Shown here: piece after piece, positions 4,789-61,149 of the stretch
How positions within the stretch are numbered: the stretch's first letter is position 1
Layout of the letters: the number at the start of each line of letters is the position of its first letter
Origin: Chloroflexota bacterium
GTDB taxonomy: Bacteria > Chloroflexota > Chloroflexia > QHBQ01
NCBI GenBank assembly: GCA_025355955.1
Contig: JANXYP010000193.1
Coordinates: 3,597 to 67,596, forward strand
Reading direction: 5' to 3'
DNA length: 64,000 nucleotides
The notes under the pieces: model-generated
The model's input: the letters and a program-made list of their open reading frames with translations, nothing else
Told to the model about the DNA's origin: nothing
The model's database searches: none
Position numbers and translations under genes: made by a program

Positions 4789-4815
4789 TAATCTAATCTG
4801 CAATCTACAATCAAG
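4789..4815. repeat. Tandem heptanucleotide array (TAATCTA/ATCTGCA/ATCTACA)
   Basis: taatcta-atctgca-atctaca-atcaagg, ending 10 nt upstream of the ATG at 4825. Confidence 0.7.
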
Positions 4816-4824
4816 GATACACCG

Positions 4825-5517
4825 ATGACCGCAAAGAAGGATAGCATCCACTTCGATCTGTTGGAGGTGCTGAAGGGCGAGACCTGCCCCGTCTGTCGGC
4901 TGATGCACCGCCATGTTGCCCGCTACCTCGACACCATCAGCTACGAGGCGGTCAACGATGTGGAGATCCGCGACCGGCTGCGGGCCGCGCTCGGCTTCTG
5001 CCCCACCCACTCGTGGCAGTGGCTGGAGCTGAACAACGCGCTTGCCAGTGCGATTATATACCAGGATGTGCTGCGCGAGTTGCGCCGCCGCCTGGATACG
5101 CTGGAGCCGCCCGCCGCTGGTGGCCTGCTCAATTTTGGCAAGCGGGGCAAGGGCAAGCTAGATGCGCTGGCCCCCGCCGCCACCTGCCCCGCCTGCGAGG
5201 TGCGCGACCAGACCGCCATCCGCACCCTTGATACCTTCACTCGATTGCTGGCCGAGGTGGACTTCAGCGACGAGTACCAGCGCAGTCGCGCCCGCCTCTG
5301 CCTGCTCCACCTCCGCGTTACTCTCGCTCGCATCAGCGACCCCGCTATCTTCCGCCGCCTGGTCAGCATCGAGCGCGATATCCTGGAGTTCAGCGAGGGG
5401 CAGCTTGGCGAACTGATCCGCAAGTACGACTACCGCTTCCGCGACGAAAAGGTGGGCGACGAGGCGGGCGCACCAGCGCGCGCCGTCAAGCGGCTGGCAG
5501 GAATGAAAGGGGTATAA
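4825..5517 (+). CDS. Cysteine-rich cytoplasmic protein with two CxxC-x34-CxxH modules; family not recognised with confidence
   Basis: C21-x2-C24…C59-x2-H62 and C121-x2-C124…C159-x2-H162, exactly 100 residues apart. AAGGAT precedes the ATG. Confidence 0.7.
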   Translation: MTAKKDSIHFDLLEVLKGETCPVCRLMHRHVARYLDTISYEAVNDVEIRDRLRAALGFCPTHSWQWLELNNALASAIIYQDVLRELRRRLDTLEPPAAGGLLNFGKRGKGKLDALAPAATCPACEVRDQTAIRTLDTFTRLLAEVDFSDEYQRSRARLCLLHLRVTLARISDPAIFRRLVSIERDILEFSEGQLGELIRKYDYRFRDEKVGDEAGAPARAVKRLAGMKGV

Positions 5518-5526
5518 CCCAATTAC

Positions 5527-5572
5527 GAATGGTGAATGGTGAATGGTGAATGGTGAATGGTGAATGGTGATT
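5527..5572. repeat. Tandem heptanucleotide array (GAATGGT) x6
   Basis: Six perfect GAATGGT units starting 10 nt after the stop at 5517. Confidence 0.9.
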
Positions 5573-5590
5573 ATAGGGGTGGGTTGCACT

Positions 5591-5848
5591 CGCCCATGGA
5601 CATCAAACTAAGCAAACAGCAGCCTAGATCATGCGGATTTGTTCCTAATGGTGATGGCTCTCTGGGGGTCGGGGGGTTCAGCCCCCAGCTGCTGCCCGTT
5701 CCCAATGCTGCAAGCTTGCCGCAGCTTTGGATTTACCGATAAACAACGACGCTGCTTACGATGGGCATTGATGCACTTGAGCAGCTGGGGGCTGACCTCC
5801 AGACCCCCGTGCTCATCCCCAACTTTCTTAGCTTGATGCCTATCGACG
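5591..5848. mobile_element. MITE-like element, family B (~258 bp, long imperfect palindrome)
   Basis: Ends CCATGGACATCAAACTAAGC / GCTTAGCTTGATGCCTATCG are inverted repeats. Internal arms GGGGGTCGGGGGGTTCAGCCCCCAGCTG / CAGCTGGGGGCTGACCTCCAGACCCC pair. The second copy, 40155-40413, is nested in a family-A element. Confidence 0.7.
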
Positions 5849-5941
5849 TAACAAAATACCCCGCTTTACGTACATAATTATGATATAATTAGAATGCAGG
5901 CTTGAATCTGATTACAATACCAAAAGAGGAGATCAGTTCTG

Positions 5942-6916: not shown

Positions 6917-7041
6917 CATCATCTCCCCTCCCACGGGAGGGGCTGGGGGTGGGTCCGTGCCACGCAACGCAGCCCTCTCCCAACCTCCCCCGGTGGGGGA
7001 GGAGCAGATCGGCATCGCCCTAGCTCAAGAGGACAATCACA

Positions 7042-8652: not shown

Positions 8653-8838
8653 GATTGCGCTCAAGCTACTATCCCTACCCAAAGGGGGAGGCAAGGAGGG
8701 GGAGCGAGCCACGCTTATCAGCTGAGTACATGGTGTCGTGCCAGGATTGCAGCATTGTAGATGGAAACGGCGCACTTGGCGCGCTTTGTGCTAATTACTA
8801 AACAACAGATGTACCACCTTCCGTTTAGAAAGGAAGCA

Positions 8839-10050
8839 ATGATGAACAAAATGATGCGCTTCAGTGCGGGTGTGTGGCTGGCGGTGATGCTGATGTTGAG
8901 CGTGACCCTCACCTTCGCCTCATCCGGCTCCCGGGTGCAGGACGATGCCAACGTGTTTAGCAGCGCACAGCGCAGCAGCCTGCTGCAGTTCGCCAATGCG
9001 ATGAAGGTGCCAGCATTGGTGACAACCACCGCCTCGTTCAATGGCAGCAAGAGCGCCTTCGTCAACCAGGCGAGCAGCAACGTGCCGTCCAATGGTGTCC
9101 TAATCGCAATCAGCACCGCTACGAGCAACCATTACTACGTGGTATTGGTGGGCAACAACAGCGGGCTGGGCAACAGCGATCAGCAGAACGCCTACAGCGC
9201 GGGGCTTGATTACCTGAAGGCCAGCGGCGGGCCGCAGTATGCGCCAGCGACGTTCGCCAGCCTCTACTCGCTGGATGCGGCGCTGGGGGCGCAGGCTTCT
9301 GATGCGCTGGGTATCAGCGGTGCGCCGGGCAGCGGTTTCACCACGAGCGGTGGTAACGGCAACACCAACCTACCAGTTACCAACCTCAACCCGCCCAACT
9401 CCGGCAATATCGGTTCGGGTGGCGGCGTGAATACCAGCGGAGGCTACAGCAGTAGCGGAGGAGGCTTCGGTTTCGGTGGCCTCGGCATCGGCACCTGCCT
9501 GTGCGGGTTGGTGCTGCTGTTTATCGTCTTCAGCATCTTCAACAGCGTGCGCGGCTATAGCAATCGGGTGGCGGGTCGCTTTGGACGCTACGGTGGTTAT
9601 CAGGGTTACGGCGGAGGCTGGGGCGGTGGCGGCGGCATTCTGCCAATTCCTATCCCCATTCCCTTTGGTGGTGGGGGCAATAGCGGCAACCAGGGTGGCA
9701 ACCAGCAAGGCGGTGGCGGCCAGGACTTCGGCGGCGGTGGTGGCGGAGGGCATAACAATGCGCCCAACACTGGTGGCGGCACCTTCGAGTCGCCCTTCGG
9801 CGGAGGCGGTCACAGCGAGGGCAGCAGCATCCTCGGTGAGATCTTCGGTGGCGGTGGCGGCGGTGGCGGTGGCGGCGGCGGTGGCAGCAGAAACACTGGC
9901 GGCGGTGGCTTCGAGTCCGGCTTCGGCGGTGGCGGCGGTGGCGGCGGCGGTGGCAGCAGAAACACTGGCGGCGGTGGCTTCGAGTCCGGCTTCGGCGGTG
10001 GTGGAGGTGGCGGCGGTGGCGGTGGCGGTGGTGGCGGCCAGGATTTCTAG
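8839..10050 (+). CDS. TPM domain protein (one TPM domain, one TM, very Gly-rich tail)
   Basis: ATG at 8839 follows GAAAGGAAG. Signal peptide MMNKMMRFSAGVWLAVMLML…, TPM-like RVQDDANVFSSAQRSSL…NGVLIAIS…, TM, NTGGG(T/G)FES motif x3, and the protein ends GQDF. Confidence 0.8.
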   Translation: MMNKMMRFSAGVWLAVMLMLSVTLTFASSGSRVQDDANVFSSAQRSSLLQFANAMKVPALVTTTASFNGSKSAFVNQASSNVPSNGVLIAISTATSNHYYVVLVGNNSGLGNSDQQNAYSAGLDYLKASGGPQYAPATFASLYSLDAALGAQASDALGISGAPGSGFTTSGGNGNTNLPVTNLNPPNSGNIGSGGGVNTSGGYSSSGGGFGFGGLGIGTCLCGLVLLFIVFSIFNSVRGYSNRVAGRFGRYGGYQGYGGGWGGGGGILPIPIPIPFGGGGNSGNQGGNQQGGGGQDFGGGGGGGHNNAPNTGGGTFESPFGGGGHSEGSSILGEIFGGGGGGGGGGGGGSRNTGGGGFESGFGGGGGGGGGGSRNTGGGGFESGFGGGGGGGGGGGGGGGQDF

Positions 10051-10408
10051 CCGCGATTCCCTGCCAACGCTAAAGTGATACCAATTAGCGGTGGTGCCGC
10101 TTTAGATTGAGCCATGACGAACAACGGTTCGCCCCTACTGAACGCCTGCTCCGCAAGAACGTGATCCGCACCCGTGGTGAATGACCACCTACCTCGCCGA
10201 GTAATCGAGGGCTGGGAGCGTAGCTCCGAGCGTTCAAGCGTATCAATGCTTATCGCAAGCGTCAATCCGTCAATGCTGGTAGCTGTTGAAGGGTTGGTGA
10301 TGGCGGGAGATAAGCGCGACGCAGAGGATCGGCATGGATCTACGCCCCAACCTCCGATACTCTTCTTGACCGCTGCTTGCGATAAGCATTGATGCGCTTC
10401 ACCATTCT

Positions 10409-10576: not shown

Positions 10577-10584
10577 CCTCATCC

Positions 10585-15756: not shown

Positions 15757-15808
15757 CCCAACCCCTCCCGGTGGGAGGGGAGAACATCAGAACTTTGTTT
15801 ACATGGCA

Positions 15809-15838
15809 CTCATGCCTCAGTCCTCAGTCCTCATGCCT
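15809..15838. repeat. Tandem heptanucleotide array (CTCATGC/CTCAGTC)
   Basis: ctcatgc-ctcagtc-ctcagtc-ctcatgc, lying just 3' of the minus-strand stop at 15843, between that gene and pyrK. Confidence 0.75.
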
Positions 15839-15842
15839 GGCG

Positions 15843-17183
15843 TTAGCCCGCTTCCTGCTTGGTATCGTTCAGCATGGTGTCGAGCTTCTGGGCGGCACGG
15901 GCGCGGAAGTCGACGGTGACGATGTTGCTGCGTCGCCCCTCGTCGCGGGTGGTGCGGGTGGCCGACTGGCTGAGGACGCGGGCTATTATAGTGGCCGCCT
16001 CCTTGCTCCAGAAGTTGACCAGGCCGGTGTTCGAGTTCTGGTGGTAGAGGGTCATGATCAGGGCGTGTTGGCCGACTGGTGACAGGCAGGTGTTGATCTG
16101 CGCGCCATGGTAGACTAGCGTGCTGGGCTTGCTCTCGCCCAGGTAGCGGCCCAGTTCGTGCCACGAGGTGAAGATGCCTGCTGCAAGTGCGAACAGCGAG
16201 GGGTAGTTCTGGTGCAGCGCCTGGCCGCGGCGGGCGATGATGCTGCCATCTGCGCCGATGAGGCAGACTTCGCTCGACTCGCTACGGGTGAGCAACACTT
16301 CTAGTACCTGATCCACGCGGGCCATTTCGCCATCGTCCATCACCAGGGTGGCGGGGTTGGGCCGCGAGTCGTTGCCCTGCTCCGGCGCTTCCTCGTCACT
16401 CTCGGTCTCACGGTAGAGGTTCGCCAACATCGGGTCGGGACGCGACGACATCTGCGCGACCTGTTCTGGTGTCTTCTTCATCACCAGGCCCACTCCCAGC
16501 AAGTCGGCGACGATCTGGCAGACATGGTCGGGGTCGAAGCCAGTCTGCTCGGCGATCTGAGCCACGGTGCTGCGGCCATCCACCATACTGAGAACCGCCC
16601 ACTCATGGCCCTGCACCGTAACCCGTTCGCTGGGTGGGCGCTGTTGGCCGGGCGCAAGGGCGATAACCTCGGCCAGCATTGCATCACGGTCGTAGCCGGG
16701 GTCGAGCGCGTCGAGCAGGCTGATCTGCCCGCTCAACACCTCGTCGACATCGAGCGCGGCGCTGGGCAACGCGCCAGTGGCGGGTGGCTCGAAGTCGAAG
16801 CGGAAGCGGCCCCGCTGCCATGTAACCAGCCGCGACATTACTTCCATGATCTGCACCTGCACCGCCATAGTCAAGTCATCGGCGCTAATTAGCTTCATCT
16901 CCAGCAGCAGGCTGCCCAACCGACGGCCCTGCTGCTGCTGACGCTGGATGTAGTATGCCTGCTCCAACTGCGGGCGGGTGAGCCGATGGGTGCGTACCAG
17001 GATCTCGCCAATGCGGTCGCCGCCCAGCGTGGATTCGGCGTGGATCAGCTTGCCGCTGAGGAATGACACCCGCGCCTTGTTCGCCACATCCTGCACCGTC
17101 AGGTTGCCGGTTAGCCCGCTGGTGCCAATCGTCTGTAGCAATGAGATGATATTAAACTCCTCAATCGCTCCTTCAAGCGCCAC
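15843..17183 (-). CDS. DUF4388 (PatA-N-like) domain protein with a C-terminal Roadblock/LC7-like domain
   Basis: N-terminus LEGAIEEFNIISLLQTIGTSGLTGNLTV…GKLIHAES is typical of DUF4388. The C-terminal ~120 aa (EVCLIGADGSIIARRG…ALIMTLY) looks MglB/Roadblock-like. A GTG at 17183 preceded by GAGGGGG is preferred over the ATG at 17261. Confidence 0.7.
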   Translation of the reverse strand: MALEGAIEEFNIISLLQTIGTSGLTGNLTVQDVANKARVSFLSGKLIHAESTLGGDRIGEILVRTHRLTRPQLEQAYYIQRQQQQGRRLGSLLLEMKLISADDLTMAVQVQIMEVMSRLVTWQRGRFRFDFEPPATGALPSAALDVDEVLSGQISLLDALDPGYDRDAMLAEVIALAPGQQRPPSERVTVQGHEWAVLSMVDGRSTVAQIAEQTGFDPDHVCQIVADLLGVGLVMKKTPEQVAQMSSRPDPMLANLYRETESDEEAPEQGNDSRPNPATLVMDDGEMARVDQVLEVLLTRSESSEVCLIGADGSIIARRGQALHQNYPSLFALAAGIFTSWHELGRYLGESKPSTLVYHGAQINTCLSPVGQHALIMTLYHQNSNTGLVNFWSKEAATIIARVLSQSATRTTRDEGRRSNIVTVDFRARAAQKLDTMLNDTKQEAG

Positions 17184-17737
17184 TGCACACCCCCTCGCTA
17201 ACCAGCCGCGTAACGCACCGCTGAATTGCAATGCTGCCACAAGTATACCACAGGGATGCAACTGCTGGGCAACGGGCTGCGGTACATCACGTTCTTGCCA
17301 CGCAAGTTTGATAGGGGCGAGCTACGGTTCGCCCTGGTCGGTGATGCTAGAACGTGACGCGCATCCGTGTCGCCGGGTGCAGTTCATCAAATTGCAACTT
17401 ATATGTGAGGTGTGCGGATTGCAACTACTCTGGTGGATATCGCAAGAGCTTGAACTGCATCCTACGTCGCCGCGCTATTGGCTCATTTTGGCTATCCAGC
17501 AGCAAATGTAAAAGGGATTACACCGAACCTGTAAAGATTTTGACAACATCCTAGCTTAATTAAAGTTATAATTAGCCCAGGTTAATTCTTGCAGACACCT
17601 AAGCGCCTGCCCACCAATCCCCAGTTTCGCCTGCAGCGATGGGGCCAGGCAGTAGCGCGGAGGTAACGCACTTTGGCCCCCAGAAACCTCCATATTATCC
17701 ACCCTCAGCAATAAAAGGAAAGAAAGGAACAGATCTC

Positions 17738-19452: not shown

Positions 19453-19591
19453 ATACCAATTAGCCGAGGAGATGGTGCATTTCTGTAGGGGCAAACCGTT
19501 GTTCGCCCTGGCTCAATTTATACCAATTGGCCGAGGAGATGGTACATTTCTGTAGGGGCGAGCCGTTGTTCGCCCTGGCCCAATTTATACC
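19453..19591. repeat. Two tandem 67-bp copies of a REP-containing element (ATACCAATTAGCCGAGGAG…GTAG-GGGCRAnCCGTTGTTCGCCC…)
   Basis: Units 19453-19519 and 19520-19586 differ at a few positions. Related single copies are at 28305-28395, 61568-61670 and 10075-10140. Confidence 0.85.
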
Positions 19592-21975: not shown

Positions 21976-22004
21976 TTGACAGCATCAGCTAGATAAGGTA
22001 TAAT
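21976..22004 (+). promoter_or_regulatory. Consensus sigma70-type promoter for tRNA-Lys
   Basis: TTGACA (21976-21981), 17 nt spacer, TATAAT (21999-22004). The predicted start is ~2-5 nt before the tRNA 5' end. Confidence 0.7.
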
Positions 22005-22013: not shown

Positions 22014-22089
<76 letters not shown>

Positions 22090-22118
22090 TTTGCTGAGTT
22101 GAAAGTGAAAAGTTGAAA

Positions 22119-22149
22119 GTGGAGAGGCATCGGCCCCTCCACTTTTTTT
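22119..22149 (+). terminator. Probable intrinsic terminator after tRNA-Lys
   Basis: GTGGAGAGG-catcgg-CCCCTCCAC followed by TTTTTTT. Confidence 0.6.
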
Positions 22150-22286
22150 GTTTTGCCCACTGGCTGGGCAGAGCCTGTCTTCACCAAAGTTGTGATACAC
22201 CGTACTCCCCCCTCCTTGCCTCCCCCTTTGGGGATGGATACGCTGAACTTTGTTTTCACTCAGCATTCAGCACTCAGCACTAAAAA

Positions 22287-27025: not shown

Positions 27026-27035
27026 AGGGTTTCGT

Positions 27036-27062
27036 TAGTGCTAAGTGCTGAGTTCAGTGTGT
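27036..27062. repeat. Degenerate heptanucleotide array (TAGTGCT/AAGTGCT/GAGTTCA)
   Basis: Located 11 nt upstream of the start codon at 27025 (minus strand). Confidence 0.6.
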
Positions 27063-29203: not shown

Positions 29204-30127
29204 CTAATGCGTCGCTTTCGCCCGCTCGATGGCGGCATCGTGAGCCTTCACTTCGATGGTGTCGTCAAGCGGCGGCAAGGTAACGTTGCCATAGCGACGG
29301 ATGAGGGCGCGTTCGATCAGCCAGTCAGCCACCGGCGGGTTCTTGGGCAGCAACGAGCCGTGCAGGTAGCAGCCAATTGCAGACTTGTAGACTGCGCCCT
29401 CCCAGCCGTCCTCGCCGTTGTTGCCATGCCCCACCGTCACGCGACCGAGCGGCGGTAGCCCCTTGTTCAGATAGGTGTGGGCGCTGTGGTTCTCGAAGCC
29501 CACCAGCCTGCCAAACTGTTCGCTGTCCACCACCATATTGCCGATGAACCGTGTCGGCCCAGCGACGGAGTATGCGTCGAACAGGCTGATGCCAGGCAGC
29601 TTGTCGGCGTTGTGGGGTTGGTAGTAGTGGCCGAGCAACTGGTAGCCACCGCAGACCGAGAGCAGCGCCGCGCCATCCTCCACTGCCTGCCGCAGCCGTG
29701 TGCCGCGCCCGTCACGCTGCAGGTCGGCGGCGACCGCTTCCTGCTGCTGGTCCTGCCCACCGCCGAAGAAGTAGAGGTCGTATTTGTCGGTATCCAGCGG
29801 GTCGCCGACGCTGACCCGCTCCACGCTCACGCCGATGCCGCGCCACTTGCAGCGCTGTGCAATGCTGATAGTGTTGCCGCGGTCGCCGTAAATGTTCATC
29901 AGGTCGGCGTACAGGAAGGCGACGTGGATCAGTGCTGAGTGCTGAGTGCTGAGTGCTGAGTGCTGAGGCTGTGCCTGAAGCCCCGCTTGGTTGTTTGTAG
30001 GGGCGAACAACGGTTCGCCCTTTACTGACACATCAGGCTGTGCCGGAAGCCCAGCTTCGTTGTTTGTAGGGGCGAAAAACGGTTCGCCCTTTTCAGACAT
30101 TTCATGGTGTGGGAGTGTTGCGGACAT
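29204..30127 (-). CDS. gatD: Lipid II isoglutaminyl synthase glutaminase subunit GatD (CobB/CobQ-like class I amidotransferase); N-terminal boundary uncertain
   Basis: The conserved core starts at IHVAFLYADLMNIYGDRGN…, nucleophile SVCGGYQLLG. The first ~65 codons of the ORF are made of two REP copies plus a (GTGCTGA)n array. Possible internal GTG/TTG starts exist. Confidence 0.8.
   Translation of the reverse strand: MSATLPHHEMSEKGEPFFAPTNNEAGLPAQPDVSVKGEPLFAPTNNQAGLQAQPQHSALSTQHSALIHVAFLYADLMNIYGDRGNTISIAQRCKWRGIGVSVERVSVGDPLDTDKYDLYFFGGGQDQQQEAVAADLQRDGRGTRLRQAVEDGAALLSVCGGYQLLGHYYQPHNADKLPGISLFDAYSVAGPTRFIGNMVVDSEQFGRLVGFENHSAHTYLNKGLPPLGRVTVGHGNNGEDGWEGAVYKSAIGCYLHGSLLPKNPPVADWLIERALIRRYGNVTLPPLDDTIEVKAHDAAIERAKATH
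29931..29967. repeat. Tandem heptanucleotide array (AGTGCTG) x5
   Basis: Five perfect units, in frame inside the annotated 5' end of the gatD ORF (translated …QHSALSTQHSAL…). Confidence 0.9.
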
Positions 30128-30821
30128 CCACTTCTCCTTTGATTAGCTGATCATAGGTGGGCATTTGGATTTTACCGGAGCTGGGATCCTGGATATAGAG
30201 GCGCACGGTGCGGGTGCTGCTGTCGGCAATCATGATGGTGCGGCTGGCGGAGGGCGAGTCGCTCTGACCGTAGAGGGTGAGGTTGGCGAAGCTGCGCCGC
30301 CGCGTGTCGAATATCCCCAGTGTGGCGCTAATGCTGCTGCCAGGGGCGATGATGGTGTCGCCGCTGCCGTCGGCGTTTAGCTGATGCACGCCATCGGTCA
30401 GCGCGGGCAGGTTGTCCTGGGTCAGGCTCTGGCCGTAAACGTAGTAGTGCAGCTTGCCTGCGCTGGGCCAGTCGAGCCGAAAGTTGGTCACGATGGTCTC
30501 ATACGTGGCCTGGTCGGGCGTGGGGTGACGCATTACCTTGTCTGGCACGATAATCTTCTCAGCGCTGCCTGCCGCGTTGTTCAGGCACAGGTTCCAGTGA
30601 TCATCGGCAATCTCCAACTGCTGGGTCTGGTCGTTGAACTGGGTGGTGAGGTCGCGGCGAAAGTAGGCCACCTGGGTGCCGTCCGGCGACCAGACTGGCG
30701 ACTCGAAGGTAGTGGCCTGCTGCGACGGGGAGGAGTTGGCAGTGCAGCCCGCCAGCAGCAGGAGCAGCAGCAAGATAAAGAGTTTTGAGTTTTGAGTTTT
30801 GAGTTTTGAGTTGAAGGGCAT
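30102..30821 (-). CDS. Lipoprotein of unknown function
   Basis: Lipobox LLLLLAGC. ATG at 30821. The n-region MPFNSKLKTQNSKL is encoded by the (GAGTTTT)n array. It sits between murT and gatD. Confidence 0.7.
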   Translation of the reverse strand: MPFNSKLKTQNSKLFILLLLLLLAGCTANSSPSQQATTFESPVWSPDGTQVAYFRRDLTTQFNDQTQQLEIADDHWNLCLNNAAGSAEKIIVPDKVMRHPTPDQATYETIVTNFRLDWPSAGKLHYYVYGQSLTQDNLPALTDGVHQLNADGSGDTIIAPGSSISATLGIFDTRRRSFANLTLYGQSDSPSASRTIMIADSSTRTVRLYIQDPSSGKIQMPTYDQLIKGEVDVRNTPTP

Positions 30822-30890
30822 CAGGTTGTTTTCCTTGCGTCGGGGCGAGTGCAACTGCTCCATAGTTTTGAGTTTTGAGTTTTAAGTTGA
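30780..30890. repeat. Two blocks of (GAGTTTT)n heptanucleotide repeats
   Basis: 30780-30813 (4+ units) and 30864-30890 (3-4 units), both in the same orientation. Confidence 0.9.
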
Positions 30891-30980: not shown

Positions 30981-31013
30981 AACTCAAAACTCAAAACTCA
31001 AAACTCAAAACTA
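30981..31013. repeat. (AACTCAA)n heptanucleotide array, inverse orientation to 30780-30890
   Basis: Four units ending in the murT stop codon (CTA at 31011-31013). Confidence 0.9.
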
Positions 31014-33997: not shown

Positions 33998-34054
33998 GTA
34001 GCAAAACCCCTCCTCAAAGGGGGAGGCGGGGAGGGGGAGCGAGTCGCACGGCAT

Positions 34055-34978: not shown

Positions 34979-35469
34979 TAAACCCATCCTCCAAAGGGGG
35001 GGGCGGGGAGGGGGAGTAGTACCTAGCTCACGGACCCACCCCCAGCCCCTCCCGGTGGGAGGGGAGTCCTGGCAAAAACCCGCTAGCAAAGGGAGAGCGC
35101 CATCTACTTCACGGACCCACCCCTAGCCCCTCCCGCAGGGAGGGGAGTCTAGCAACCCCAAACTACATTCTACATTCTACAATTCATAGCGGGAGGTGAG
35201 CGTGTTCCCCCAAACACCCACTCCCCTGTTACACAAAGGGTGCAGAATAGGTCATGGCCCGGCCTGTGCTGCTCCCTTTGTGTATATCTACCGCTGGGCA
35301 GCCTGCCTGCACTCGGTTATAATGGGCTGGAAGTGGAGTACAAGAAAGGAGCAGCAAGCACCCCGAAGTCCCCCCAAACGTAGGGGCGGGCGTTGGCCCG
35401 CCCAGTCGAGCGAGCCTGTCAGCCAACTTATTTAACACTCAACCACACAAACAAAAGGAGGGTACAACC

Positions 35470-37922: not shown

Positions 37923-37950
37923 CTCAGTCCTCAGTCCTCAGTCCGCATCA
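37923..37950. repeat. Tandem heptanucleotide array (CTCAGTC) x3
   Basis: ctcagtc x3 then cgcatca, ending 6 nt from the minE stop (37956). Confidence 0.8.
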
Positions 37951-39070: not shown

Positions 39071-39105
39071 GAGTTTTGAGTTTTGAGTGCTGAGTTTTGA
39101 GTGAA
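39071..39105. repeat. Heptanucleotide array (GAGTTTT/GAGTGCT mixed)
   Basis: gagtttt-gagtttt-gagtgct-gagtttt-gagtgaa, 16 nt upstream of the minD ATG. Confidence 0.9.
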
Positions 39106-39144: not shown

Positions 39145-39179
39145 AACTCAAAACTCAAAACTCAAAACTCAAAACTCAT
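39145..39179. repeat. Heptanucleotide array (AACTCAA) x4-5, inverse of 39071-39105
   Basis: It abuts the minC stop codon (39179-39181). Confidence 0.9.
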
Positions 39180-39982: not shown

Positions 39983-40000
39983 GTTCCCCTCACCATTTAA

Positions 40001-40033
40001 GATTGCAGCTTGCAGATTGCAGATTGCAGATTA
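40001..40033. repeat. Heptanucleotide array (GATTGCA) x4
   Basis: gattgca-gcttgca-gattgca-gattgca, 19 nt upstream of the minC ATG. Confidence 0.85.
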
Positions 40034-40610: not shown

Positions 40611-40643
40611 CAATCTGCAATCTAAAAGCTGCAATCTGCAATC
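40611..40643. repeat. Heptanucleotide array (CAATCTG), inverse of 40001-40033
   Basis: caatctg-caatcta-aaagctg-caatctg-caatccc, ending 3 nt from the mrdA stop (40646). Confidence 0.85.
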
Positions 40644-52338: not shown

Positions 52339-53631
52339 TCAATGGGCGCGCTTTTCACCGCGCCTACTGATGCGTAGCCCCACCGCCATCAGCAGCACAC
52401 CAAGCAGCAGGATGAGCGGGCTAGCCCAGGGCTGGCTACTGCCGGTGTTAGGCAGGTGCGGAGTCGACGGTGTAGCGATCGGAGTCGCGGTCTGGGTTGC
52501 ATATGGCACTTTCGTGCTGGTAGTAACTGCCACCGGCGTGCTGCTAGAGCCTGGTATTGGCGTGCTGGTGGAGCCTGGTATTGATGTGCTGGTGGAGCCT
52601 GGCAGCGGCGTGGAGCTAGCGCCTGGTACTGGCGTTTTGCTAGCGCCCGGTATTGAGGTGCTGGTAGCGCCTGGTATTGGGGTGCTGGTGGAGACTGGTA
52701 CTGGCGTGTTGGTAGGCAGCGGGGTCGTGGGCCTGGGTATTGGCGTAGTGGTAGCGCCTGGCAGCCGTGTGTTAGTGGCGGTTGGCGTTGGAGTGTTGGT
52801 GGCACCGGGCGTGTTAGTTGCGCTCAACACTGCCGTGCTGGTGGGGTTTAGGGTGTTGGTAGCGGTTGGCACCGTGGTGCTGGTAGCAGCGGGCGTATTA
52901 GTGGCTGGCAGCGGCGTGTTAGTGGCAGATGGTCTACCGCAGGCTTGAATGTTGTTGCTGTCGAGGGTAAGCGCACCATTGCGGGCGTATAGACCGCCAG
53001 CGGACGATGCCGACGTATTGAGTGTGATCGAGGTCAGCGCCATAATGTTGCCCATGAAGGTGGTGGACGTTCCCAGGGTGGCGGAACTGCCGATCTGCCA
53101 GAAGATATTGCACGCCTGCGCCCCGTTGATGAGCAGTACGCTGGAATTGCTGGCCGTAGTAAGGGTGCTACCAATCTTGAATATGAAGACACTCGCGGAG
53201 TTGCCTTGACCGTCGAGGGTGAGCTGCCCGGTCAGTTGGGCAGCGGTGTCGAAGCAGTACACTGCGGAAATAAGCGTCTGGCCGCCGAGATTCTGTCCAG
53301 TTAGATTGGTATTACACGTCTGCACGATAGTAGCGTTCCATGCGGCGGTCACATCGCTCTGGGCTTGCTGGGCCACCGCGTCGCCTGGGTGGATCGAGCC
53401 AGTCAGAGTGCCTGGCGGAAATCCGGTGATCGCTGACCCTGGGCTTACCCCTACATCGCCGATCACATGGGTCGCGCCGGTATTCGTCACCGTGCTGCCC
53501 GAGAGTACGCCGAAACTTGCCGCCGTCCCCAGATTGGGTAGGGTTGCGGCCAGCGCTGGCGCGGCCAGTAGCACTAGTATGGGTAGAAACAGGGCCAAGG
53601 TGACGACTGGTAGATACCTTTTGAGTTTCAT
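52339..53631 (-). CDS. DUF3494 (ice-binding-like beta-helix) surface protein with a P/T-rich stalk and an LPXTG-type sorting signal
   Basis: LGTAASFGVLSGSTVTNTGATHVIGDVGVSPGSAITGFPPG is typical of DUF3494. The C-terminus is LPNTG + hydrophobic segment + RISRRGEKR. ATG at 53631 follows TAAGGAG. Confidence 0.8.
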   Translation of the reverse strand: MKLKRYLPVVTLALFLPILVLLAAPALAATLPNLGTAASFGVLSGSTVTNTGATHVIGDVGVSPGSAITGFPPGTLTGSIHPGDAVAQQAQSDVTAAWNATIVQTCNTNLTGQNLGGQTLISAVYCFDTAAQLTGQLTLDGQGNSASVFIFKIGSTLTTASNSSVLLINGAQACNIFWQIGSSATLGTSTTFMGNIMALTSITLNTSASSAGGLYARNGALTLDSNNIQACGRPSATNTPLPATNTPAATSTTVPTATNTLNPTSTAVLSATNTPGATNTPTPTATNTRLPGATTTPIPRPTTPLPTNTPVPVSTSTPIPGATSTSIPGASKTPVPGASSTPLPGSTSTSIPGSTSTPIPGSSSTPVAVTTSTKVPYATQTATPIATPSTPHLPNTGSSQPWASPLILLLGVLLMAVGLRISRRGEKRAH

Positions 53632-54075
53632 CGAAGTAGGCTCCTTATCTGTCAAGTCATCACCGCAGCCGGTGGTGAGCGGGTAACTGGAAGCTGTAGG
53701 CTACGAGGTATGGTCTACAGTGCTATTATAACAATGACTACCAGCATAAGCAAGGAATGTTCCACCGATTCTTCTGCCGGTTTGTCTGGATTTCCAGATA
53801 AATGAAACTGTTGAGCGATAGTAGGCTACCACAGGTAGGTAGATGTACAAACTAAGCTTCCTTGAAATCGTAGAATTGCTTTCCTCTACGTACCCCAATG
53901 TGGTGAGAAGCATGGATTGGCAGCGGTTGCTACATCCTTTGCCGTATTTTAACCCACCTACACCAACCAGATATTGCCCTTCACCGATGTGCGTGTTATA
54001 ATTTATATGACCGCAAGGCCAGAGGCAAGCCGCCCCTGGTCTTTGGCATAACTAGATAAGAAGGTTGTGAGTGCA

Positions 54076-56232
54076 ATGGCTACAATTTTGACCGTTAACA
54101 AACTGAGCAAATCATACGTCGTCACCCAGATATTCAAGAACGTATCGTTTCAGATTAGCGAGAACGAGAAGGTCGCGCTCGTAGGGGTGAACGGCGCGGG
54201 CAAGAGTACGCTGCTGAAGATTGTCGCTGGGATGGAGGAAGCCGACAGCGGCGAGATCATCAAGGCACGAGGGCTGAAGATCACCTACCTGCCCCAGGAA
54301 GTAACCTACATCGGCGATGCCGGGCAAACCCTGATTGGCGAGATGCACAGCGCGTTTGCCGAGGTGCAGGAGATGCAGGCACGGATGCGACAACTGGAGG
54401 CTGCTATAAGCGCGGGCGGCGCGGGCAGCACCTACGCCGCCCTACTCGATGCCTACAGCGACCTCTCCGAACGCTTCGAGCATATGGGCGGCTACGATTA
54501 CGAAACCCGCATCGAACAGATATTGATGGGCCTGGGCTTTGGCCGCAACCAGTTCAATCACCCGCTCGGCAAGCTCAGTGGCGGGCAGAAGACGCGGGCC
54601 GCCCTTGCCAAAGCGCTGCTCACTTCTCCCGATTTGCTGCTGCTCGATGAACCGACCAACCACCTCGACCTCTCTGCCCTCGAATGGCTCGAAGATTTCC
54701 TCAACAAATGGGCGGGCAGCGTCATCCTCATCTCCCACGACCGCTACTTCCTCGATAAAACCACCAACCGCACCCTCGATATGGCTTTCGGCACGCTGGA
54801 GGATTACCCCGGCGGCTACTCGCGCTACCTTGACCTCAAGGCCGATCGGCTGGAGCGGCGCGAGAACGAATACACCGCGCAGCAGGAGTATATTGCCAAG
54901 ACTGAGGACTTCATCCGCCGCTACAAGGCGGGTCAGCGCTACCGCCAGGCGCGCGGGCGGCAGAAACAACTCGACCGCATGGATCGCATCGCCCGCCCCG
55001 ACGAGCATGACAAGCTCAAGCTGCAATTTAACGCCGACCTACGCAGCGGCACTGCGGTGCTGGTTAGCGACGCGCTGGCGGTGGGCTATCGCAATCATCG
55101 GCAGGGCGAACCGCTGGGTGAACGCATCCTCTTCCGCCTGCCCGATGTGGAGTTGCGACGCGGCGAACGAGTCGCCCTGGTGGGGCCGAACGGCAGCGGC
55201 AAATCCACCCTGCTGAAGACGATTGTGGGCGAATTGCCGCCTCTGCACGGCACGCTGCAACTCGGCACCAACGTGATTGTCGGCTACTACGCGCAGGCGC
55301 ACGAGGGGCTGAACCTCGAACACGACATCATCAGCGAGGTGATGAGCGCGCAGCCGATGAGCGAGGAAACTGCCCGCAACCTGCTGGCTCGCTTCATGTT
55401 TACTGGCGATGAGGTTTACCGCCGCGTGGGCGACCTGAGCGGCGGTGAACGCAGCCGCGTGGCCCTGGCGAAGCTGACCCTGGCTCGCGCCAACCTCCTC
55501 ATCCTCGACGAGCCGACCAACCACCTCGACATCAACGCCCGCGAAGCGCTCGAAGAGGTGCTGCGCGAATACCCCGGCACCCTGCTATTCGTTTCGCATG
55601 ACCGCTACTTCATTGACGCAATCGCCAGCCACACCTGGGTGGTAAACAAAGGGCGGCTCGACACCTTTAGCGGCAACTACAGCGACTATCAGGCCGAGGT
55701 TGCTCGCCGCGAACGCGAAGGCATCAATGTGCTGCAAGTACCCCCACCGCAGCCTGCTGCCAGCGCCAACGGCAAACGCAAGAGCCAACCCGTTCCCAGC
55801 GCCAACGGCAACGGCGCAGCCACCCGACCTGCTACCAACGGCGCAGCGCGACCCACCGCCAACGGCGCAGCCCGTAACGGCAAGGCCGCTCCCACTGCCC
55901 CCGCAGTGAAGAATGGCAAATCCCAGCCTAGCGCGTCCGCACCGAAGAATGGGCGCAGCAACGGCCAGACCAGCGCCACTGTCTACGGCGGAGCGCGGCA
56001 ACATAGCCGCGAGGTGGAGCAGCTAGAGCAACTAATCGAGGGTCTGGAGACACGCCTGCGCCAGCTTACTTCTGATCTGGGCGCGGCTACCGAGCAGCGC
56101 GACCTATCCGCCATCAGTCGGCTGGGGCGGGAATACGAGGCCGCCGAGGTGGAGCTTGAGCGCAAATACAAGGATTGGGAGCGGCTATCCAGCATGGTGG
56201 CCGCCTTATTGATTGTAGAAGGTAGAATGTAG
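54076..56232 (+). CDS. ABC-F family ATPase (two ABC cassettes, no TM) with a low-complexity and coiled-coil C-terminal extension
   Basis: GVNGAGKST/LSGGQKTR and GPNGSGKST/LSGGERSR. The C-terminal 8 residues are encoded by a heptamer array (56209-56236). Confidence 0.9.
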   Translation: MATILTVNKLSKSYVVTQIFKNVSFQISENEKVALVGVNGAGKSTLLKIVAGMEEADSGEIIKARGLKITYLPQEVTYIGDAGQTLIGEMHSAFAEVQEMQARMRQLEAAISAGGAGSTYAALLDAYSDLSERFEHMGGYDYETRIEQILMGLGFGRNQFNHPLGKLSGGQKTRAALAKALLTSPDLLLLDEPTNHLDLSALEWLEDFLNKWAGSVILISHDRYFLDKTTNRTLDMAFGTLEDYPGGYSRYLDLKADRLERRENEYTAQQEYIAKTEDFIRRYKAGQRYRQARGRQKQLDRMDRIARPDEHDKLKLQFNADLRSGTAVLVSDALAVGYRNHRQGEPLGERILFRLPDVELRRGERVALVGPNGSGKSTLLKTIVGELPPLHGTLQLGTNVIVGYYAQAHEGLNLEHDIISEVMSAQPMSEETARNLLARFMFTGDEVYRRVGDLSGGERSRVALAKLTLARANLLILDEPTNHLDINAREALEEVLREYPGTLLFVSHDRYFIDAIASHTWVVNKGRLDTFSGNYSDYQAEVARREREGINVLQVPPPQPAASANGKRKSQPVPSANGNGAATRPATNGAARPTANGAARNGKAAPTAPAVKNGKSQPSASAPKNGRSNGQTSATVYGGARQHSREVEQLEQLIEGLETRLRQLTSDLGAATEQRDLSAISRLGREYEAAEVELERKYKDWERLSSMVAALLIVEGRM

Positions 56233-56350
56233 AATGGGGCGTGCCATTGGGTACGCCTCTCCTAATGCAACCAGCCCCTCGCCCCGCCGGGATAGAGGGC
56301 CAGCGATTCCCTCGCCCCGCCGGGGGAGAGGGCTAGGGAGAGGGGCAACT

Positions 56351-56893: not shown

Positions 56894-56937
56894 CACTCTC
56901 TCCCCTAATATGGGGAGGGTTGGGGAGGGGTGACAGC

Positions 56938-58114: not shown

Positions 58115-58269
58115 CAAGAACTCTTTGCTGCTGCCGTTGCCAGGGCGCTGACGGCGCAAGCACATATCAATGATGGTGCGACGATATATGGATTCTGGCA
58201 TACAATACCCTTCGCAAACAGTGGTAATGTGGTAGGTTCCAATAGCAGATGATGCGTTGCATCGGGGCA

Positions 58270-58790
58270 AGCACCAACCGCCCCTACACTAGCATTGGTG
58301 GTTACGATGGGCATTGATGCGCTTCAAGCGGGCGGGCAGCCGCCCCTACACTAGCATTGGTGCGCTTCAAGCGGGCGGGCAGCCGCCCGCCCCTACGTCA
58401 GCATTGGTGGTTTCGATGGGCATTGACGCGCTTCAAGCGGGCGGGCAGCCGCCCGCCCCTACGTCAGCGTTGGTGGTTTCGATGGGTGGTGATGCGCTTC
58501 AAGCGGGCAGGCAACCGCCCGCCCCTACACTAGCATTGGTGGTTTCGATCGGTGGTGGCGCGCTTCAAGCGGGCGGGCAGCCGCCCGCCCCTACACCAAC
58601 ATTGGTGGTTCCAATAGGCATTGATGCGCTTCATGTGGGCGAATGCAACCAGCCCCTACGTCAGCGTTCGTCGTTGCGATGAGCAGGTATAAGCTTCATG
58701 CGGGCGTATGCCATGCGCCCCTACAGCAATGTTGGTAGTTACGATAGGCAGTGATGCGCTTCAGCGCAGCGAACGCCGCCAGCGCCTACA
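58270..58790. repeat. Tandem array (~9 units of 47-75 bp, three with an exact 66-bp period) of a REP-containing composite unit
   Basis: Unit CCCCTACGTCAGCATTGGTGGTTTCGATGGGCATTGATGCGCTTCAAGCGGGCGGGCAGCCGCCCG. CCCCTAC anchors are at 58281, 58343, 58390, 58456, 58522, 58588, 58653 and 58728. Confidence 0.9.
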
Positions 58791-58823
58791 TTTACCATTC
58801 ACCATTTACCATTCACCATTGGC
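58789..58823. repeat. Heptanucleotide array (CATTTAC/CATTCAC)
   Basis: It ends 3 nt from the stop at 58826. Confidence 0.85.
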
Positions 58824-58825
58824 CT

Positions 58826-60574
58826 TTACTGCGGCGGGGCTAGCGAGGTAAAGTAGTCGCGCACGTAGCCCTTCAGGTTCTGCGGGATGTAGCTATTTTG
58901 CAGATCGCTGGTGGCCTGGTCGCTATACTTCTTGTAGACTTGCGAGTACGGCACCTGGGGTGCGCCGCTGGCGTTGCCGCCGCTGCTACCTGCGTTGGAG
59001 CCGCCCACGCCCGAACCCGTGCCTGAGCCGACCGGTTTGCCGCCGCCGCTGCCGTTGCCGTTATTGCTGTTACCGATAGGCAGGGGGGTACCGCTGGGGC
59101 TGTTCTGGAGCGGTTCAGGGGCATAGATGGGGTCGCTGCTGCCGAGGTTGCCGCCCGCACCGCTGCCGCCCTTCCCTGGCTGCGAACCGCTTTTGTCGGG
59201 GCTATTGCCACTCTGCGATCCACTCTGGCCGCCTGGCTGCGGGTTGCTGCCCGACTGCTGATTGCCCGACTGGGGGGTGCCGCTCGCCGCGGGCTGCGGC
59301 GTGCCAGCCGCGTTGGGCTGGTTGCCAGACGTAGCAGCGTTGTTTGTGGAGTTGCCGCCACCTGCGACCGCAGTGCCGCGGGGCTGAGGCGTGGGTTGAC
59401 CGGCCTGGGCGACCGCTTGCTCACCGTTCTGCACCTGGGCCAGCGCTTGCTGCAACTGCTGCTGCGCGGCGATCGACTGACCGGCATCAGCCACCTGCCC
59501 TGAAGCATCCTCCAGCGCGTGCTGGGCGGCGGCGAGGTCACCCTTCTTCAGCGCGGCGGCCGCCTGCTGCAGCGCGGCTGCCAGCTTGGGGTCGATACTG
59601 GATAGTGCGGTGGCTGCCTGCGTTAGCGCATTCTGCAGGTTGAGTAGCTGGTCGGGGCGTAGGTTAGGGATGTTGTTGGCGAGGTCGTGCATCCCCTGCG
59701 CCGCATCCTGGAAGTTGCCCAGTTGCAGGTTGTTAGCGATCGCCTGGATGGCCGGGTCGGTGAACTTGCCTAGCTCCTGGCCGAGACGATTGAGCGCCTC
59801 CTTCTCCGCCAGGCTGGCGGGATCTTGCAGCTTCTTCAGGTTATCCTCGGTCTGCTGCATCCGTGCCAGCGCCTGTTCGCGGCTGAGGGTACCGTTGGCG
59901 AGATCGCGCTGCAATGCGGCGATTTCGGTGAGCAACTGCTGGCGCACCGGATCATCGACGTTGGGCGCTTGCTCGATCTCGTGCTGCACCTGTTGGATTT
60001 TGCTGGCAACCTCTTGTTGGGTGGCTTTTACCGCCTCGCGCTGGCGGGCCGCTGCCTCCAGCGGGTTGGGCGCATACAACGCCAGCAACAGCAGCACCGC
60101 TAGCACCGCACTGAAGGCGAGATCGCGCCCGTTCAGGCGGACGGGGAAAGCGTGGCGAATGTCCGCGCTACCCGCGACGTGGGCGGCATCCGCTGCCTGC
60201 AGCGCCACCATCGTTCCCTGCGCCTTTCGGTTGTGGGCATCGACTGCGGTGCTGAGACGCTCGTGGAGGTCCATAACCTGATCTATACGGCGGGCGATCT
60301 CGATACGCGGGCGGGGGCGCAGAAAGGCGAAGATAAAGTTGAGCGCGAGGGCGAGAGCGATCGCCCCGCCGATTAGCTCACCTACCTGGGTAGGGCTGTA
60401 ATGCGGCCAGATGCGGGTGGCCGCCGCCACCAACGCGGCCAGCGCGAAGCCCGCGCCCAATGCGATGGGCAGGCCGCGTATCGCCTCCTGCCAGCGCAGG
60501 CGGCGCTCCAGCCGCCGCAGGTCAGTCAGCAAATCGTCATAAACCGCCTGCGTGTCAATAATCCGCATACTCAT
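58826..60574 (-). CDS. Membrane protein with a long coiled-coil/low-complexity region and a conserved-looking C-terminal motif (hypothetical)
   Basis: Two or three N-terminal TMs, Q/A-rich coiled coil, G/S/N-rich segment, and C-terminus …YSQVYKKYSDQATSDLQNSYIPQNLKGYVRDYFTSL. Confidence 0.7.
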   Translation of the reverse strand: MSMRIIDTQAVYDDLLTDLRRLERRLRWQEAIRGLPIALGAGFALAALVAAATRIWPHYSPTQVGELIGGAIALALALNFIFAFLRPRPRIEIARRIDQVMDLHERLSTAVDAHNRKAQGTMVALQAADAAHVAGSADIRHAFPVRLNGRDLAFSAVLAVLLLLALYAPNPLEAAARQREAVKATQQEVASKIQQVQHEIEQAPNVDDPVRQQLLTEIAALQRDLANGTLSREQALARMQQTEDNLKKLQDPASLAEKEALNRLGQELGKFTDPAIQAIANNLQLGNFQDAAQGMHDLANNIPNLRPDQLLNLQNALTQAATALSSIDPKLAAALQQAAAALKKGDLAAAQHALEDASGQVADAGQSIAAQQQLQQALAQVQNGEQAVAQAGQPTPQPRGTAVAGGGNSTNNAATSGNQPNAAGTPQPAASGTPQSGNQQSGSNPQPGGQSGSQSGNSPDKSGSQPGKGGSGAGGNLGSSDPIYAPEPLQNSPSGTPLPIGNSNNGNGSGGGKPVGSGTGSGVGGSNAGSSGGNASGAPQVPYSQVYKKYSDQATSDLQNSYIPQNLKGYVRDYFTSLAPPQ

Positions 60575-60592
60575 GGGCTAGCTCTCCATCGA

Positions 60593-60627
60593 AGGCATGA
60601 GGCACGAGGCATGAGGCATGAGTGTTT
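60593..60627. repeat. Heptanucleotide array (AGGCATG)
   Basis: aggcatg-aggcacg-aggcatg-aggcatg, 19 nt upstream of the start at 60574. Inverse copies (CTCATGC / TCATGCC) are at 60746-60759 and 60903-60923. Confidence 0.85.
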
Positions 60628-61149
60628 TTGCCATAGTTCTTCTGACCGCCTCACTAACACTTATGCTCTGTTATAACATATAGACGTTGAAATGCAAAGG
60701 TAGGTTGCATTTAAATCATATGGTAAGCGGGCAAAAGGCTTACATCTCATGCCTCATTACCAAATAAACAAAGTTCTGATCACTCCCCTCCCGGCGGGAG
60801 GGGTTGGGGGTGGGTCCGGGCAGCGCGACTCGCACCCTCCCCTACCCCTCCCGGTGGGAGGGGAAACTACACCTCGCCATCAAAACTTTGTTTATTCGGC
60901 AATCATGCCTCATGCCTCGCATCAGGTTGCACATATATTACGCTACTCAGGAGGCAAAGGGTTCAGATGTTGCTGTGAGGGCATAAGACGGGATGGCAAC
61001 CAGCAGACTTCTAGCTTGTCCCTTAGAAAGCCATTATGATATACTGGTCTCAGACTGGGCAAAGCAGAGATCGGCCCGGTTAAGCGGGTTAGAAGGCGTG
61101 ACCGTTACGTTCATGAATTATTGTCAATCAAACTAAAAGGAGAACGATA

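Follow-up and report, generated by a model that had tools for sequence, protein, structure and literature searches.

The 64-kb stretch of contig JANXYP010000193.1 analyzed here (hereafter the window) carries many short tandem arrays of seven-nucleotide units, set against the starts and ends of its genes. It is close to certain that they are simple sequence repeat (SSR) arrays of the short tandemly repeated repetitive (STRR) type, of one kind with the heptamer arrays of Xanthomonas and Nostoc and with the STRRs of filamentous cyanobacteria. They obey a strict strand rule, and at several junctions two complementary arrays are predicted to pair across the space between two cistrons. Among relatives, the architecture and position of these junctions persist while the sequence of the unit turns over. 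As to their origin, we give an even chance to the explanation that they originated by slippage and have survived in transcript leaders, trailers and intercistronic segments, where paired arrays fold into long stems and any influence on expression is structural.

Arrays were detected with Tandem Repeats Finder (TRF, score of at least 30) and with a separate period scan. Twenty-three TRF rows had a period of 7, and 22 of them are genuine heptamer arrays with 2.1 to 6.3 unit copies each (the remaining row, 8959-8979, was rejected as a spurious GC-rich coding repeat). Every other period gave at most 7 rows, and 40 shuffles that preserved local composition yielded 1.3 ± 1.4 period-7 rows, with a maximum of 5. 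Three weaker arrays were found by eye (4789-4815, 27035-27056 and 51328-51350). All arrays named in a preliminary description of this DNA are present by TRF and the period scan, at coordinates that are exact or off by a few bases, and its label of STRR-like tandem heptamers is apt for dispersed 7-nt units in noncoding DNA. The units belong to at least seven families of unrelated sequence, most of which have in common the TGA(G) core that the same description had pointed out. Rfam covariance models run against the window at the gathering score matched the two tRNAs and nothing else.

The boundaries against which placement was measured come from our own curation of open reading frames (ORFs), comprising 45 protein genes and two tRNAs; the start of gatD was placed beside its array, which makes that one case circular. 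On this set, 18 of the 22 arrays come within 20 nt of the start or end of a gene or tRNA, with a median of 7 nt. Random intergenic placement brought 3.4 ± 1.7 arrays that close (maximum 11 in 20,000 trials), and a null model confined to each array's own spacer predicted 5.3 ± 1.8 where 17 of 20 were observed, a value attained in none of 20,000 trials. With both null models rejected, the coupling to cistron boundaries asserted in the preliminary description is statistically real, and the comparison with random distances that it proposed, run here on the 64-kb window, places the arrays closer to boundaries than intergenic space predicts.

Composition depends on which boundary an array adjoins. 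All 13 arrays past gene ends are G-rich and C-poor on the sense strand (G 6-19, C 0-4), including those after tRNA-Val and tRNA-Lys, and all 10 ahead of starts are of the complementary type (C 6-18, G 0-6). Read on either DNA strand, the G/T-rich array occupies the 5′ side of a spacer and the C/A-rich array the 3′ side, whichever way the flanking genes are oriented. Trailers usually repeat TGA at 7-nt intervals and so have stops in all three frames: of the 11 that follow protein genes, 9 contain stop codons in all three and 10 in at least two, whereas 7 of the 10 leader arrays contain none in any frame. The extension of the rule to tRNA trailers speaks against a cause that is purely translational. 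The sequences, read directly, contain no GGG tract in any unit, and a G-quadruplex reading is therefore inapplicable here; because the rule holds with units unable to form G-quadruplexes, that explanation is also removed as a general one. The boundary and strand rule now extends to a third or fourth phylum.

Five spacers contain inverted pairs of same-family arrays: murT to the next gene, minC to minD, mrdA to minC, mreC to mreD, and the spacer upstream of gene 58826-60574. Their predicted RNA stems are 20 to 33 bp long, with z scores, computed from mononucleotide shuffles, of -4.7 to -17 over the five pairs. The predicted hairpin is -41.5 kcal/mol at mreC-mreD (z -4.7), -51.7 kcal/mol downstream of murT (z -7.6), and -57.8 kcal/mol at minC-minD (z -10), where the stem reaches 33 bp. 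At these three junctions the 5′ arm overlaps the stop codon or begins 0 to 2 nt past it, the 3′ arm ends 0 to 17 nt ahead of the next ATG or its Shine-Dalgarno sequence (SD), and the stems connect the stop of the first cistron with the start region of the second. The mrdA-minC spacer, 663 nt long, has about 580 nt of nested palindromic repeats between its two arms, which are 88% complementary; because a promoter-like ATGACA-18-TATAAT stands immediately upstream of the minC leader array, a primary minC transcript would have that array at the 5′ end of its leader. In some pairs variant units are common to both arms; this suggests that arms were duplicated in inverted order or exchanged units, or that pairing was selected for. 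Stems are also predicted in the relatives L001, L014, L016 and L017 (z between -4.7 and -10). An intrinsic terminator was considered and rejected, the 20- to 33-bp heptamer stems having no U-run and lying between co-oriented operon genes.

The closest genome is that of Chloroflexia bacterium MAG La1_metabat2.069, syntenic and about 87% identical in nucleotide sequence, and the window MreB shares a 90% cluster with a protein of a Candidatus Chloroheliales bacterium. By these sequence affinities the host is a member of Chloroflexia near Candidatus Chloroheliales. The highly iterated palindrome HIP1 (GCGATCGC) is not enriched in the window, and because of this and of the relatives found, the earlier impression of a non-cyanobacterial genome was correct. 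Pfam assigns murT, a GatD-like amidotransferase, minC, minD, minE, a PBP2-type mrdA, mreB, mreC and mreD, and so upholds the murT, minC/D/E, mrdA and mreC/D calls made from the sequence beforehand.

We compared the mre-min region with six further lineages. The mreC-mreD units are AATGGTA/TACCATT in the window, L001 and L016, GAATTGT/ACAATTC in L017, GAGGTTT/AAACCTC in L014, GTTATGA/AACCCAT in L019 and L020, and GGCATGA in L015, which has the 5′ arm alone. In every close relative examined an array stands past the mreC stop, joined by a second arm in all except L015, and in all relatives bearing it the array begins at the stop codon, which in L014 the array itself supplies. The window and L001 differ in the 3′ arm by a single unit. 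No SD precedes mreD in any relative examined, including the array-free outgroup L141. The window has GAGTTTT at the minC-minD junction, where L002 has AATGGTA and L019 has GTTATGA/AACTCAT, with a conserved SD GAAGGGGGAAC downstream. Past minE, three GGACTGA units in the window face GTGCTGA/GGTTTGA units at the same site in L002, and the CTACATT array at 35163-35181 is kept in L002 as 3.7 copies of AATGTAG. In the comparison of orthologous spacers suggested in the preliminary description, the architecture is kept at mreC-mreD and minC-minD while the units vary, and the mrdA-minC spacer of L002 holds no heptamers. Farther out, the mreC and mreD genes overlap in a lineage at 57% MreC identity, and heptamer arrays are absent from 12.8 kb of a lineage at 43% MreC identity, with like synteny and GC content. 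Because the distant lineages show overlapping genes or no arrays, the arrays are, as far as these genomes indicate, an expansion confined to one Chloroheliales-like clade of Chloroflexia. The comparative series, in which the hairpin is kept and the unit changed, is well suited to testing structure against sequence.

A metagenome scan with MreC returned no relative. A scan for five TGAG cores at 7-nt spacing returned at least 120 contigs, with GC contents from 0.31 to 0.70, and none of those listed has any relation to the window outside the array. Seventy-six of these contigs have adequate flanking sequence. In 20 of them, an ORF of 100 aa or more terminates no farther than 25 nt ahead of the TGAG-oriented array, versus 8 for the opposite orientation (3.8% at random positions), and a start lies within 25 nt past the CTCA-oriented array in 10, versus 3 for the opposite. 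The full layout of stop, hairpin and start is present in contigs L088, L091, L105, L053 and L136.

STRR sequences were reportedly first described by Mazel et al. in 1990. The function of heptamer repeats of this type has been a standing question since then, to which this locus adds material. The nearest parallel comes from Xanthomonas, with arrays of GGGAATC, and Nostoc PCC 7120, with arrays of GGGGAYT (Rehm et al. 2015, PLoS One, PMC4692102). Those arrays prefer about 4 units, are 89 to 93% intergenic and form 70 to 75 convergent inverted pairs; their G-rich strand is the coding strand within 0 to 50 bp of stops or overlapping them and the noncoding strand 0 to 50 bp upstream of starts, 83% of positions are conserved between two species while lengths vary, and most arrays are transcribed (PMC4692102). 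The window shares with them the unit length, the intergenic placement at boundaries, the strand rule and the convergent pairing (five pairs), as well as positions kept between relatives with variable length and sequence. It differs in phylum and in having at least seven unit families, none with GGG and most bearing TGA, and at one window junction the family itself has been swapped between relatives. In cyanobacteria, STRR hairpins lie between hupS and hupL, with proposed roles in stability or translational coupling (PMC2670836). The window arrays resemble these as dispersed tandem 7-bp units, including intercistronic ones, that form hairpins and place heptamers and their complements within one spacer; they differ in their host, a member of Chloroflexia, and in that STRR1-3 (CCCCAGT, TTGGTCA, CAACAGT) have no tandem copies in the window.

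In marine Beggiatoaceae, some Cyanobacteria and Bacteroidetes, TAACTGA arrays stop about 1 nt short of start codons, frequently with no SD (MacGregor 2015, PMC4679880), a paper that also summarizes Mrazek 2007 on a general excess of heptanucleotide SSRs. They are likewise intergenic, of 2 to 6 units, with stops in all three frames, and some overlap the end of the upstream ORF. That system, however, uses a single unit, absent from both strands of the window, and its inverted pairs number 1 in 170, whereas the window combines a stop-rich trailer with an often complementary leader. Pradhan 2022 described reporter deletions of heptamers adjoining start codons in Nostoc and speculated on a heptamer-binding protein. 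The window arrays also bear comparison with repetitive extragenic palindromic (REP) elements, bacterial interspersed mosaic elements (BIMEs) and the REP doublets known as REPINs. In E. coli, REP elements affect the stability of upstream mRNA. REPs are single imperfect palindromes with a conserved head, mobilized by REP-associated tyrosine transposases (RAYTs; PMC3116915). The window arrays are similarly short, dispersed, intergenic and hairpin-forming, often inside operons and in mosaics, but they are tandem heptamers, and REP-like palindromes coexist with them in the window. The view taken in the preliminary description, that such arrays had not been described, does not hold for the phenomenon (Rehm 2015, MacGregor 2015, the hupS-hupL STRR) and apparently stands for the phylum only; we found nothing relevant in the literature linking heptamer repeats to Chloroflexi. 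Specific to the window are the several TGA-core families incapable of forming G-quadruplexes, the rule for tRNA trailers, and stop-to-start hairpins that persist despite unit swaps.

If the arrays are survivors of slippage, they would arise and be reshaped by replication slippage, unit homogenization, and inverted duplication or replacement between arms, processes that would account for the rapid turnover of units. They would be transcribed, and what they did, if anything, would depend on their structure and composition and not on recognition as sequence-specific sites. Between cistrons or at a 3′ end, a stem-loop could shield the upstream cistron and present double-stranded RNA for processing of the RNase III type, leaders poor in G would remain free of structure, and placement would largely reflect where such repeats are tolerated. 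Several observations weigh against this explanation. Stems are weak in L019 and in the minC-minD spacer of L002, 12 of 17 independent units are single arrays without a partner, and the two arrays in spacer 51316-51379 belong to noncomplementary families. On the sense strand, stem mismatches are G.T or T.G in 10 cases and A.C or C.A in 11, and because there is no G.U excess over A.C, purifying selection on pairing at the RNA level is not demonstrated. A folding model with a ribosome at the stop raised the accessibility of the downstream start at 2 of 6 junctions and left it equal or lower at 4; with the stop region forced single-stranded, the repeated arms re-pair in another register. The preliminary description had suggested a role in mRNA processing, stability or translation initiation; for a simple RNA-level model these two in silico probes offered no support. 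The turnover of arrays, and their absence from orthologous sites such as mrdA-minC of L002, fit weak or no selection. Transcription and any processing of the arrays are assumed, and tolerance alone leaves the constant G-rich strand of the trailers unexplained.

A selected translational module is possible, if rather unlikely. In such a module the TGA-bearing trailer would act as a three-frame fail-safe stop and the G-poor leader as an SD-free initiation enhancer, and pairing of the arms would keep two genes coupled after a spacer of 100 to 600 nt was inserted between once-overlapping cistrons. The stop-rich trailers and mostly stop-free leaders suit this proposal, as do the overlap of mreC and mreD in the outgroup at 57% identity, the array past the mreC stop in all close relatives examined (both arms except in L015), and the translational roles suggested for start-adjacent heptamers by MacGregor 2015 and Pradhan 2022. 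Although mreD lacks an SD in every relative and the array adjoins its ATG, the SD is missing from the array-free outgroup L141 as well. Arrays poor in C also follow two tRNA genes, where translation is irrelevant, and the Xanthomonas GGGAATC arrays follow the strand rule without containing a stop codon. The accessibility gain at just 2 of 6 modeled junctions and the junction with noncomplementary arms speak against the module too.

A broader version, which we regard as unlikely, is that the arrays are a selected, unit-independent punctuation of cistron boundaries, convergent in several phyla, in which the trailer would serve termination or 3′ protection, the leader SD-independent initiation, and pairing would tie the expression of neighboring genes together. 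If true, it would explain why complementary arms are kept at mreC-mreD and minC-minD despite replacement of the unit.

We also consider it improbable that the arrays are a mobile palindromic cassette resembling MITEs (miniature inverted-repeat transposable elements), REPINs or palindrome-associated transposable elements, copied by an enzyme into junctions, with the G-rich-first order of the arms inherited and single arrays representing decayed halves. Such copying would be consistent with the recurrence of unit families at several loci in the window and relatives, the clean family replacement at one junction, which left no trace of the first family, the expansion limited to one lineage, and the mosaic REP- and MITE-like spacers, one element of which lies beside or inside a GGCATGA array. 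A 1.8-kb short-read contig from another read set, the only one found and identical to the window, has both ends inside the arrays flanking gene 58826-60574, as would be expected if the arrays are multicopy. The loops between arms, however, are unrelated from locus to locus (the sole match being an orthologous pair), so whole cassettes are not copied in the manner of MITEs. Target-site duplications are not evident, no transposase or RAYT gene is among the 20 window proteins scanned with Pfam, and the unit sequences are too divergent for one recognition site. At the site past minE, moreover, units drift within a TGA-core continuum (GGACTGA versus GTGCTGA/GGTTTGA in L002), as they would if changed in situ.

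Action at the level of DNA, through sites for an oligomeric DNA-binding protein or through cruciforms or slipped strands with effects on transcription, replication or recombination at gene borders, is very unlikely. The convergent arrangement is symmetric on both strands, as are the stem mismatches, but the leader and trailer strand rule is simplest in terms of a transcript. Long loops disfavor cruciform extrusion, and those here, at 40 to 580 nt, make it unlikely. The heptamer-binding protein speculated on for Nostoc (Pradhan 2022) would favor the protein-site variant, against which the at least seven unrelated unit sequences argue where a single protein is concerned. It is least probable of all that the arrays are contingency loci in which gain or loss of a 7-nt unit switches adjacent genes: the one-unit difference from L001 in the mreC-mreD 3′ arm and the array apparently within lipoprotein signal-peptide coding sequence (30780-30812), where a 7-nt change shifts the frame, point that way, but nearly all arrays lie outside ORFs and promoter spacers (at most this one qualifies), the flanking genes are housekeeping genes (mre, min, mur), and it is not obvious how a change of 7 nt in a leader or trailer would act as a switch.

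Two further ideas were tried and set aside. Seeding of an array from the gene's own stop was rejected since the native stop is near the TGA phase and not consistently in it (mreC, minC, murT, L015), and identical families recur at unrelated genes. A reading of the C-rich leaders as Rho-utilization sites was dropped, comparable arrays being present in cyanobacteria, which are not known to have Rho.

Table 1. Heptamer arrays and other dispersed repeats of the window, by position. Copy numbers follow the unit; an empty cell means that nothing is recorded.
Unit or feature	Position (strand)	Family, forward-strand name	Relation to genes	Remarks
GTGGAAA x2.6	216..233 (-)		4 nt past 3′ end of tRNA-Val (238-314, minus)	C-free in tRNA sense
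Degenerate AATCTNC	4789..4815 (+)		ends 9 nt ahead of ATG of DUF6062 gene (4825)	sense C>G; below TRF threshold
GAATGGT x6.3	5527..5570 (+)		9 nt past stop of DUF6062 gene (5517)	G=19, C=0; stops in 3/3 frames
GGACTGA/GGCATGA units	15815..15833 (-)	CTCAGTC	9 nt past stop of DUF4388 gene (15843-17261)	AACTTTGTTT on interior side
GTTGAAA-type x3.4	22097..22120 (+)		7 nt past tRNA-Lys (22014-22089)	terminator-like hairpin next; C-free
GTGCTGA x3.6	22257..22281 (-)		5 nt past stop of double zinc-ribbon gene (22287-23864)	
CTCAGCA/CTTAGCA units	27035..27056 (-)		9 nt 5′ of STAND-TPR gene start (27025)	sense C>G; below TRF threshold
CAGCACT x6 (sense; AGTGCTG forward)	29931..29971 (-)		directly 5′ of conserved N terminus of gatD	
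AAAACTC x4.7 (sense)	30780..30812 (-)	GAGTTTT/AACTCAA	probably within N-region of lipoprotein signal peptide (MPFNSKLKTQNSKLFILLLLLLLAGC)	
AAAACTC-type x3.6	30864..30888 (-)	GAGTTTT/AACTCAA	adjoins ATG at 30863	3′ arm of murT-downstream hairpin
GAGTTTT x4.6 (sense)	30981..31012 (-)	GAGTTTT/AACTCAA	2-nt overlap with murT stop codon	5′ hairpin arm
CTACATT x2.7	35163..35181 (+)	TGTAGAA/CTACATT	mid-spacer by curated gene calls; ~15-20 nt 5′ of SD-like GGGAGG and GTG start (35196 or 35202)	putative 79-aa ORF 35196-35435 downstream, itself unconfirmed
GGACTGA x3.1 (sense)	37923..37944 (-)	CTCAGTC	11 nt past minE stop	
AAAACTC x4.6 (sense, one CTCAGCA unit)	39071..39102 (-)	GAGTTTT/AACTCAA	15 nt ahead of minD ATG (39055), just before conserved SD GAAGGGGGAAC	3′ arm
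GAGTTTT x4.9 (sense)	39145..39178 (-)	GAGTTTT/AACTCAA	begins at first base past minC stop	5′ arm, 33-bp stem
AATCTGC x4.7 (sense)	40000..40032 (-)	AGATTGC/CAATCTG	17 nt ahead of minC ATG	promoter-like ATGACA-18-TATAAT immediately upstream
GCAGATT x4.7 (sense)	40611..40643 (-)	AGATTGC/CAATCTG	2 nt past mrdA stop	88% complementary to 40000-40032
TACCATT-type x4.7 (sense)	44601..44633 (-)	AAATGGT/CATTTAC	runs to mreD ATG (44593), without SD	3′ arm
AATGGTA x4.6 (sense)	44714..44745 (-)	AAATGGT/CATTTAC	overlaps mreC stop codon	5′ arm
Degenerate AATCTNC units	51328..51350 (-)		ahead of SD and ATG of gene 50371-51315	not complementary to 51367-51381
GTGCTGA x2.1	51367..51381 (-)		overlaps stop of gene 51380-52174	
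TGTAGAA x3.3	56214..56236 (+)	TGTAGAA/CTACATT	last codons and stop of ABC-F gene (54067-56232); reaches next ATG (56234)	
AATGGTG/AATGGTA x4.6 (sense)	58789..58820 (-)	AAATGGT/CATTTAC	5 nt past stop of gene 58826-60574	
CTCATGC x4.3 (sense)	60593..60622 (-)	AGGCATG/TCATGCC	18 nt ahead of ATG (60574), then SD GGAGAG	pairs with 60903-60918
GGCATGA x2.3 (sense)	60903..60918 (-)	AGGCATG/TCATGCC	distal partner of 60593-60622	adjoins ~150-nt palindromic element with AACTTTGTTT ends
REP-like palindrome	10115-10134, 17315-17334, 19489-19575, 23892-23963, 27068-27087, 28343-28362, 30001-30089, 32550-32569, 45688-45707, 61607-61626			
CCCCTCCC-NNNN-GGGAGGGG hairpin	34053-34206, 6917-7010, 15757-15780, 56894-56919, 60790-60870			
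MITE-like inverted repeats	40069-40096/40450-40477 and 4500-4630; 40225-40245/40370-40395 and 5690-5860			

Between murT and gatD lies a lipoprotein-like ORF (30102-30863, lipobox LAGC), and the array at 30780-30812 is probably inside its N-terminal coding region. The AAAACTC heptamers there encode NSKLKTQNSKL, the N-region of the signal peptide, and the segment comprising SD, ATG and array has a duplicate about 85 nt upstream in a different frame. Because a 7-nt slip in this array would shift the frame, phase variation of the ORF is possible. In gatD (29899-30127), no ATG, GTG or TTG occurs from the heptamer array to the conserved N terminus IHVAFLYADL, and upstream the frame runs on without a stop across six heptamer units and two REP-like copies; the gene may have a noncanonical start, or its protein a repeat-encoded extension. 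The arrays thus have a practical side: they break short-read assemblies and can mislead the annotation of starts and stops, as at gatD and the lipoprotein gene.

The spacers that house the arrays are mosaics of other REP- and MITE-like repeats and nested inverted repeats. The window holds 15 copies of REP-like GGGCGAAC...GTTCGCCC palindromes and 8 of GGGCGGGC...GCCCGCCC palindromes. The REP-like palindrome, with about 15 copies in the form (C)TAC/GTAG-flanked GGGGCGAAC(N)GTTCGCCCC, some of them within tandem duplications of 52 to 69 bp, looks like a REP family of the RAYT type, but the window showed no RAYT gene. A 66-bp unit, each copy with a GGGCGGGCAGCCGCCCGCCCCTAC palindrome, is repeated 6.2 times at 58354-58763 and occurs also at 14909, 28168, 35384 and 35852. 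The block at 58354-58763 takes up the spacer downstream of gene 58826-60574, immediately to the interior of the heptamer array. The GC hairpins CCCCTCCC-NNNN-GGGAGGGG, single or in 41-bp tandem arrays, are a third dispersed family, and nested MITE-like inverted repeats (TATTACAGCCTCAGTTGCCA... and CTGGGGGTCTGGGGGTTCAGCCC...) are common to the mrdA-minC spacer and the spacers flanking gene 4825-5517. The motif AACTTTGTTT has four exact copies (15791-15800, 22246-22255, 60766-60775 and 60884-60893), each immediately interior to a heptamer array of the TGAG/CTCA type; with one mismatch allowed, there are 6 matches versus 1.35 expected. At 60740-60900, two of the copies form the ends of a palindromic element of about 150 nt, apparently inserted in a GGCATGA array.

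Perfect sigma-70 consensus promoters (TTGACA-17-TATAAT) stand at 328-356, 21976-22004 and 46920-46948, upstream of tRNA-Val, tRNA-Lys and mreB, and the promoters of this genome are therefore recognizable by the E. coli consensus. Another perfect copy, on the plus strand at 43180-43208, lies just before the stop of a DUF3800 gene and points antisense into it. That gene (43221-44087), between mreD and mrdA, has an atypically low GC content at third codon positions (GC3, 0.56) and is absent from this place in L015, L016, L017 and L019. An 823-aa ORF at 47124-49595 has flat GC across codon positions, with a GC3 of 0.55 against about 0.75 to 0.8 in its neighbors, and may have been acquired horizontally. 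Two genes carry in-frame coding repeats: gene 52339-53655 has a 24/72-bp unit at 52514-52715, and gene 8761-10050 has 2.3 copies of a GGC/GGT-rich 69-bp unit at 9846-10031, which yield a Gly-rich protein.

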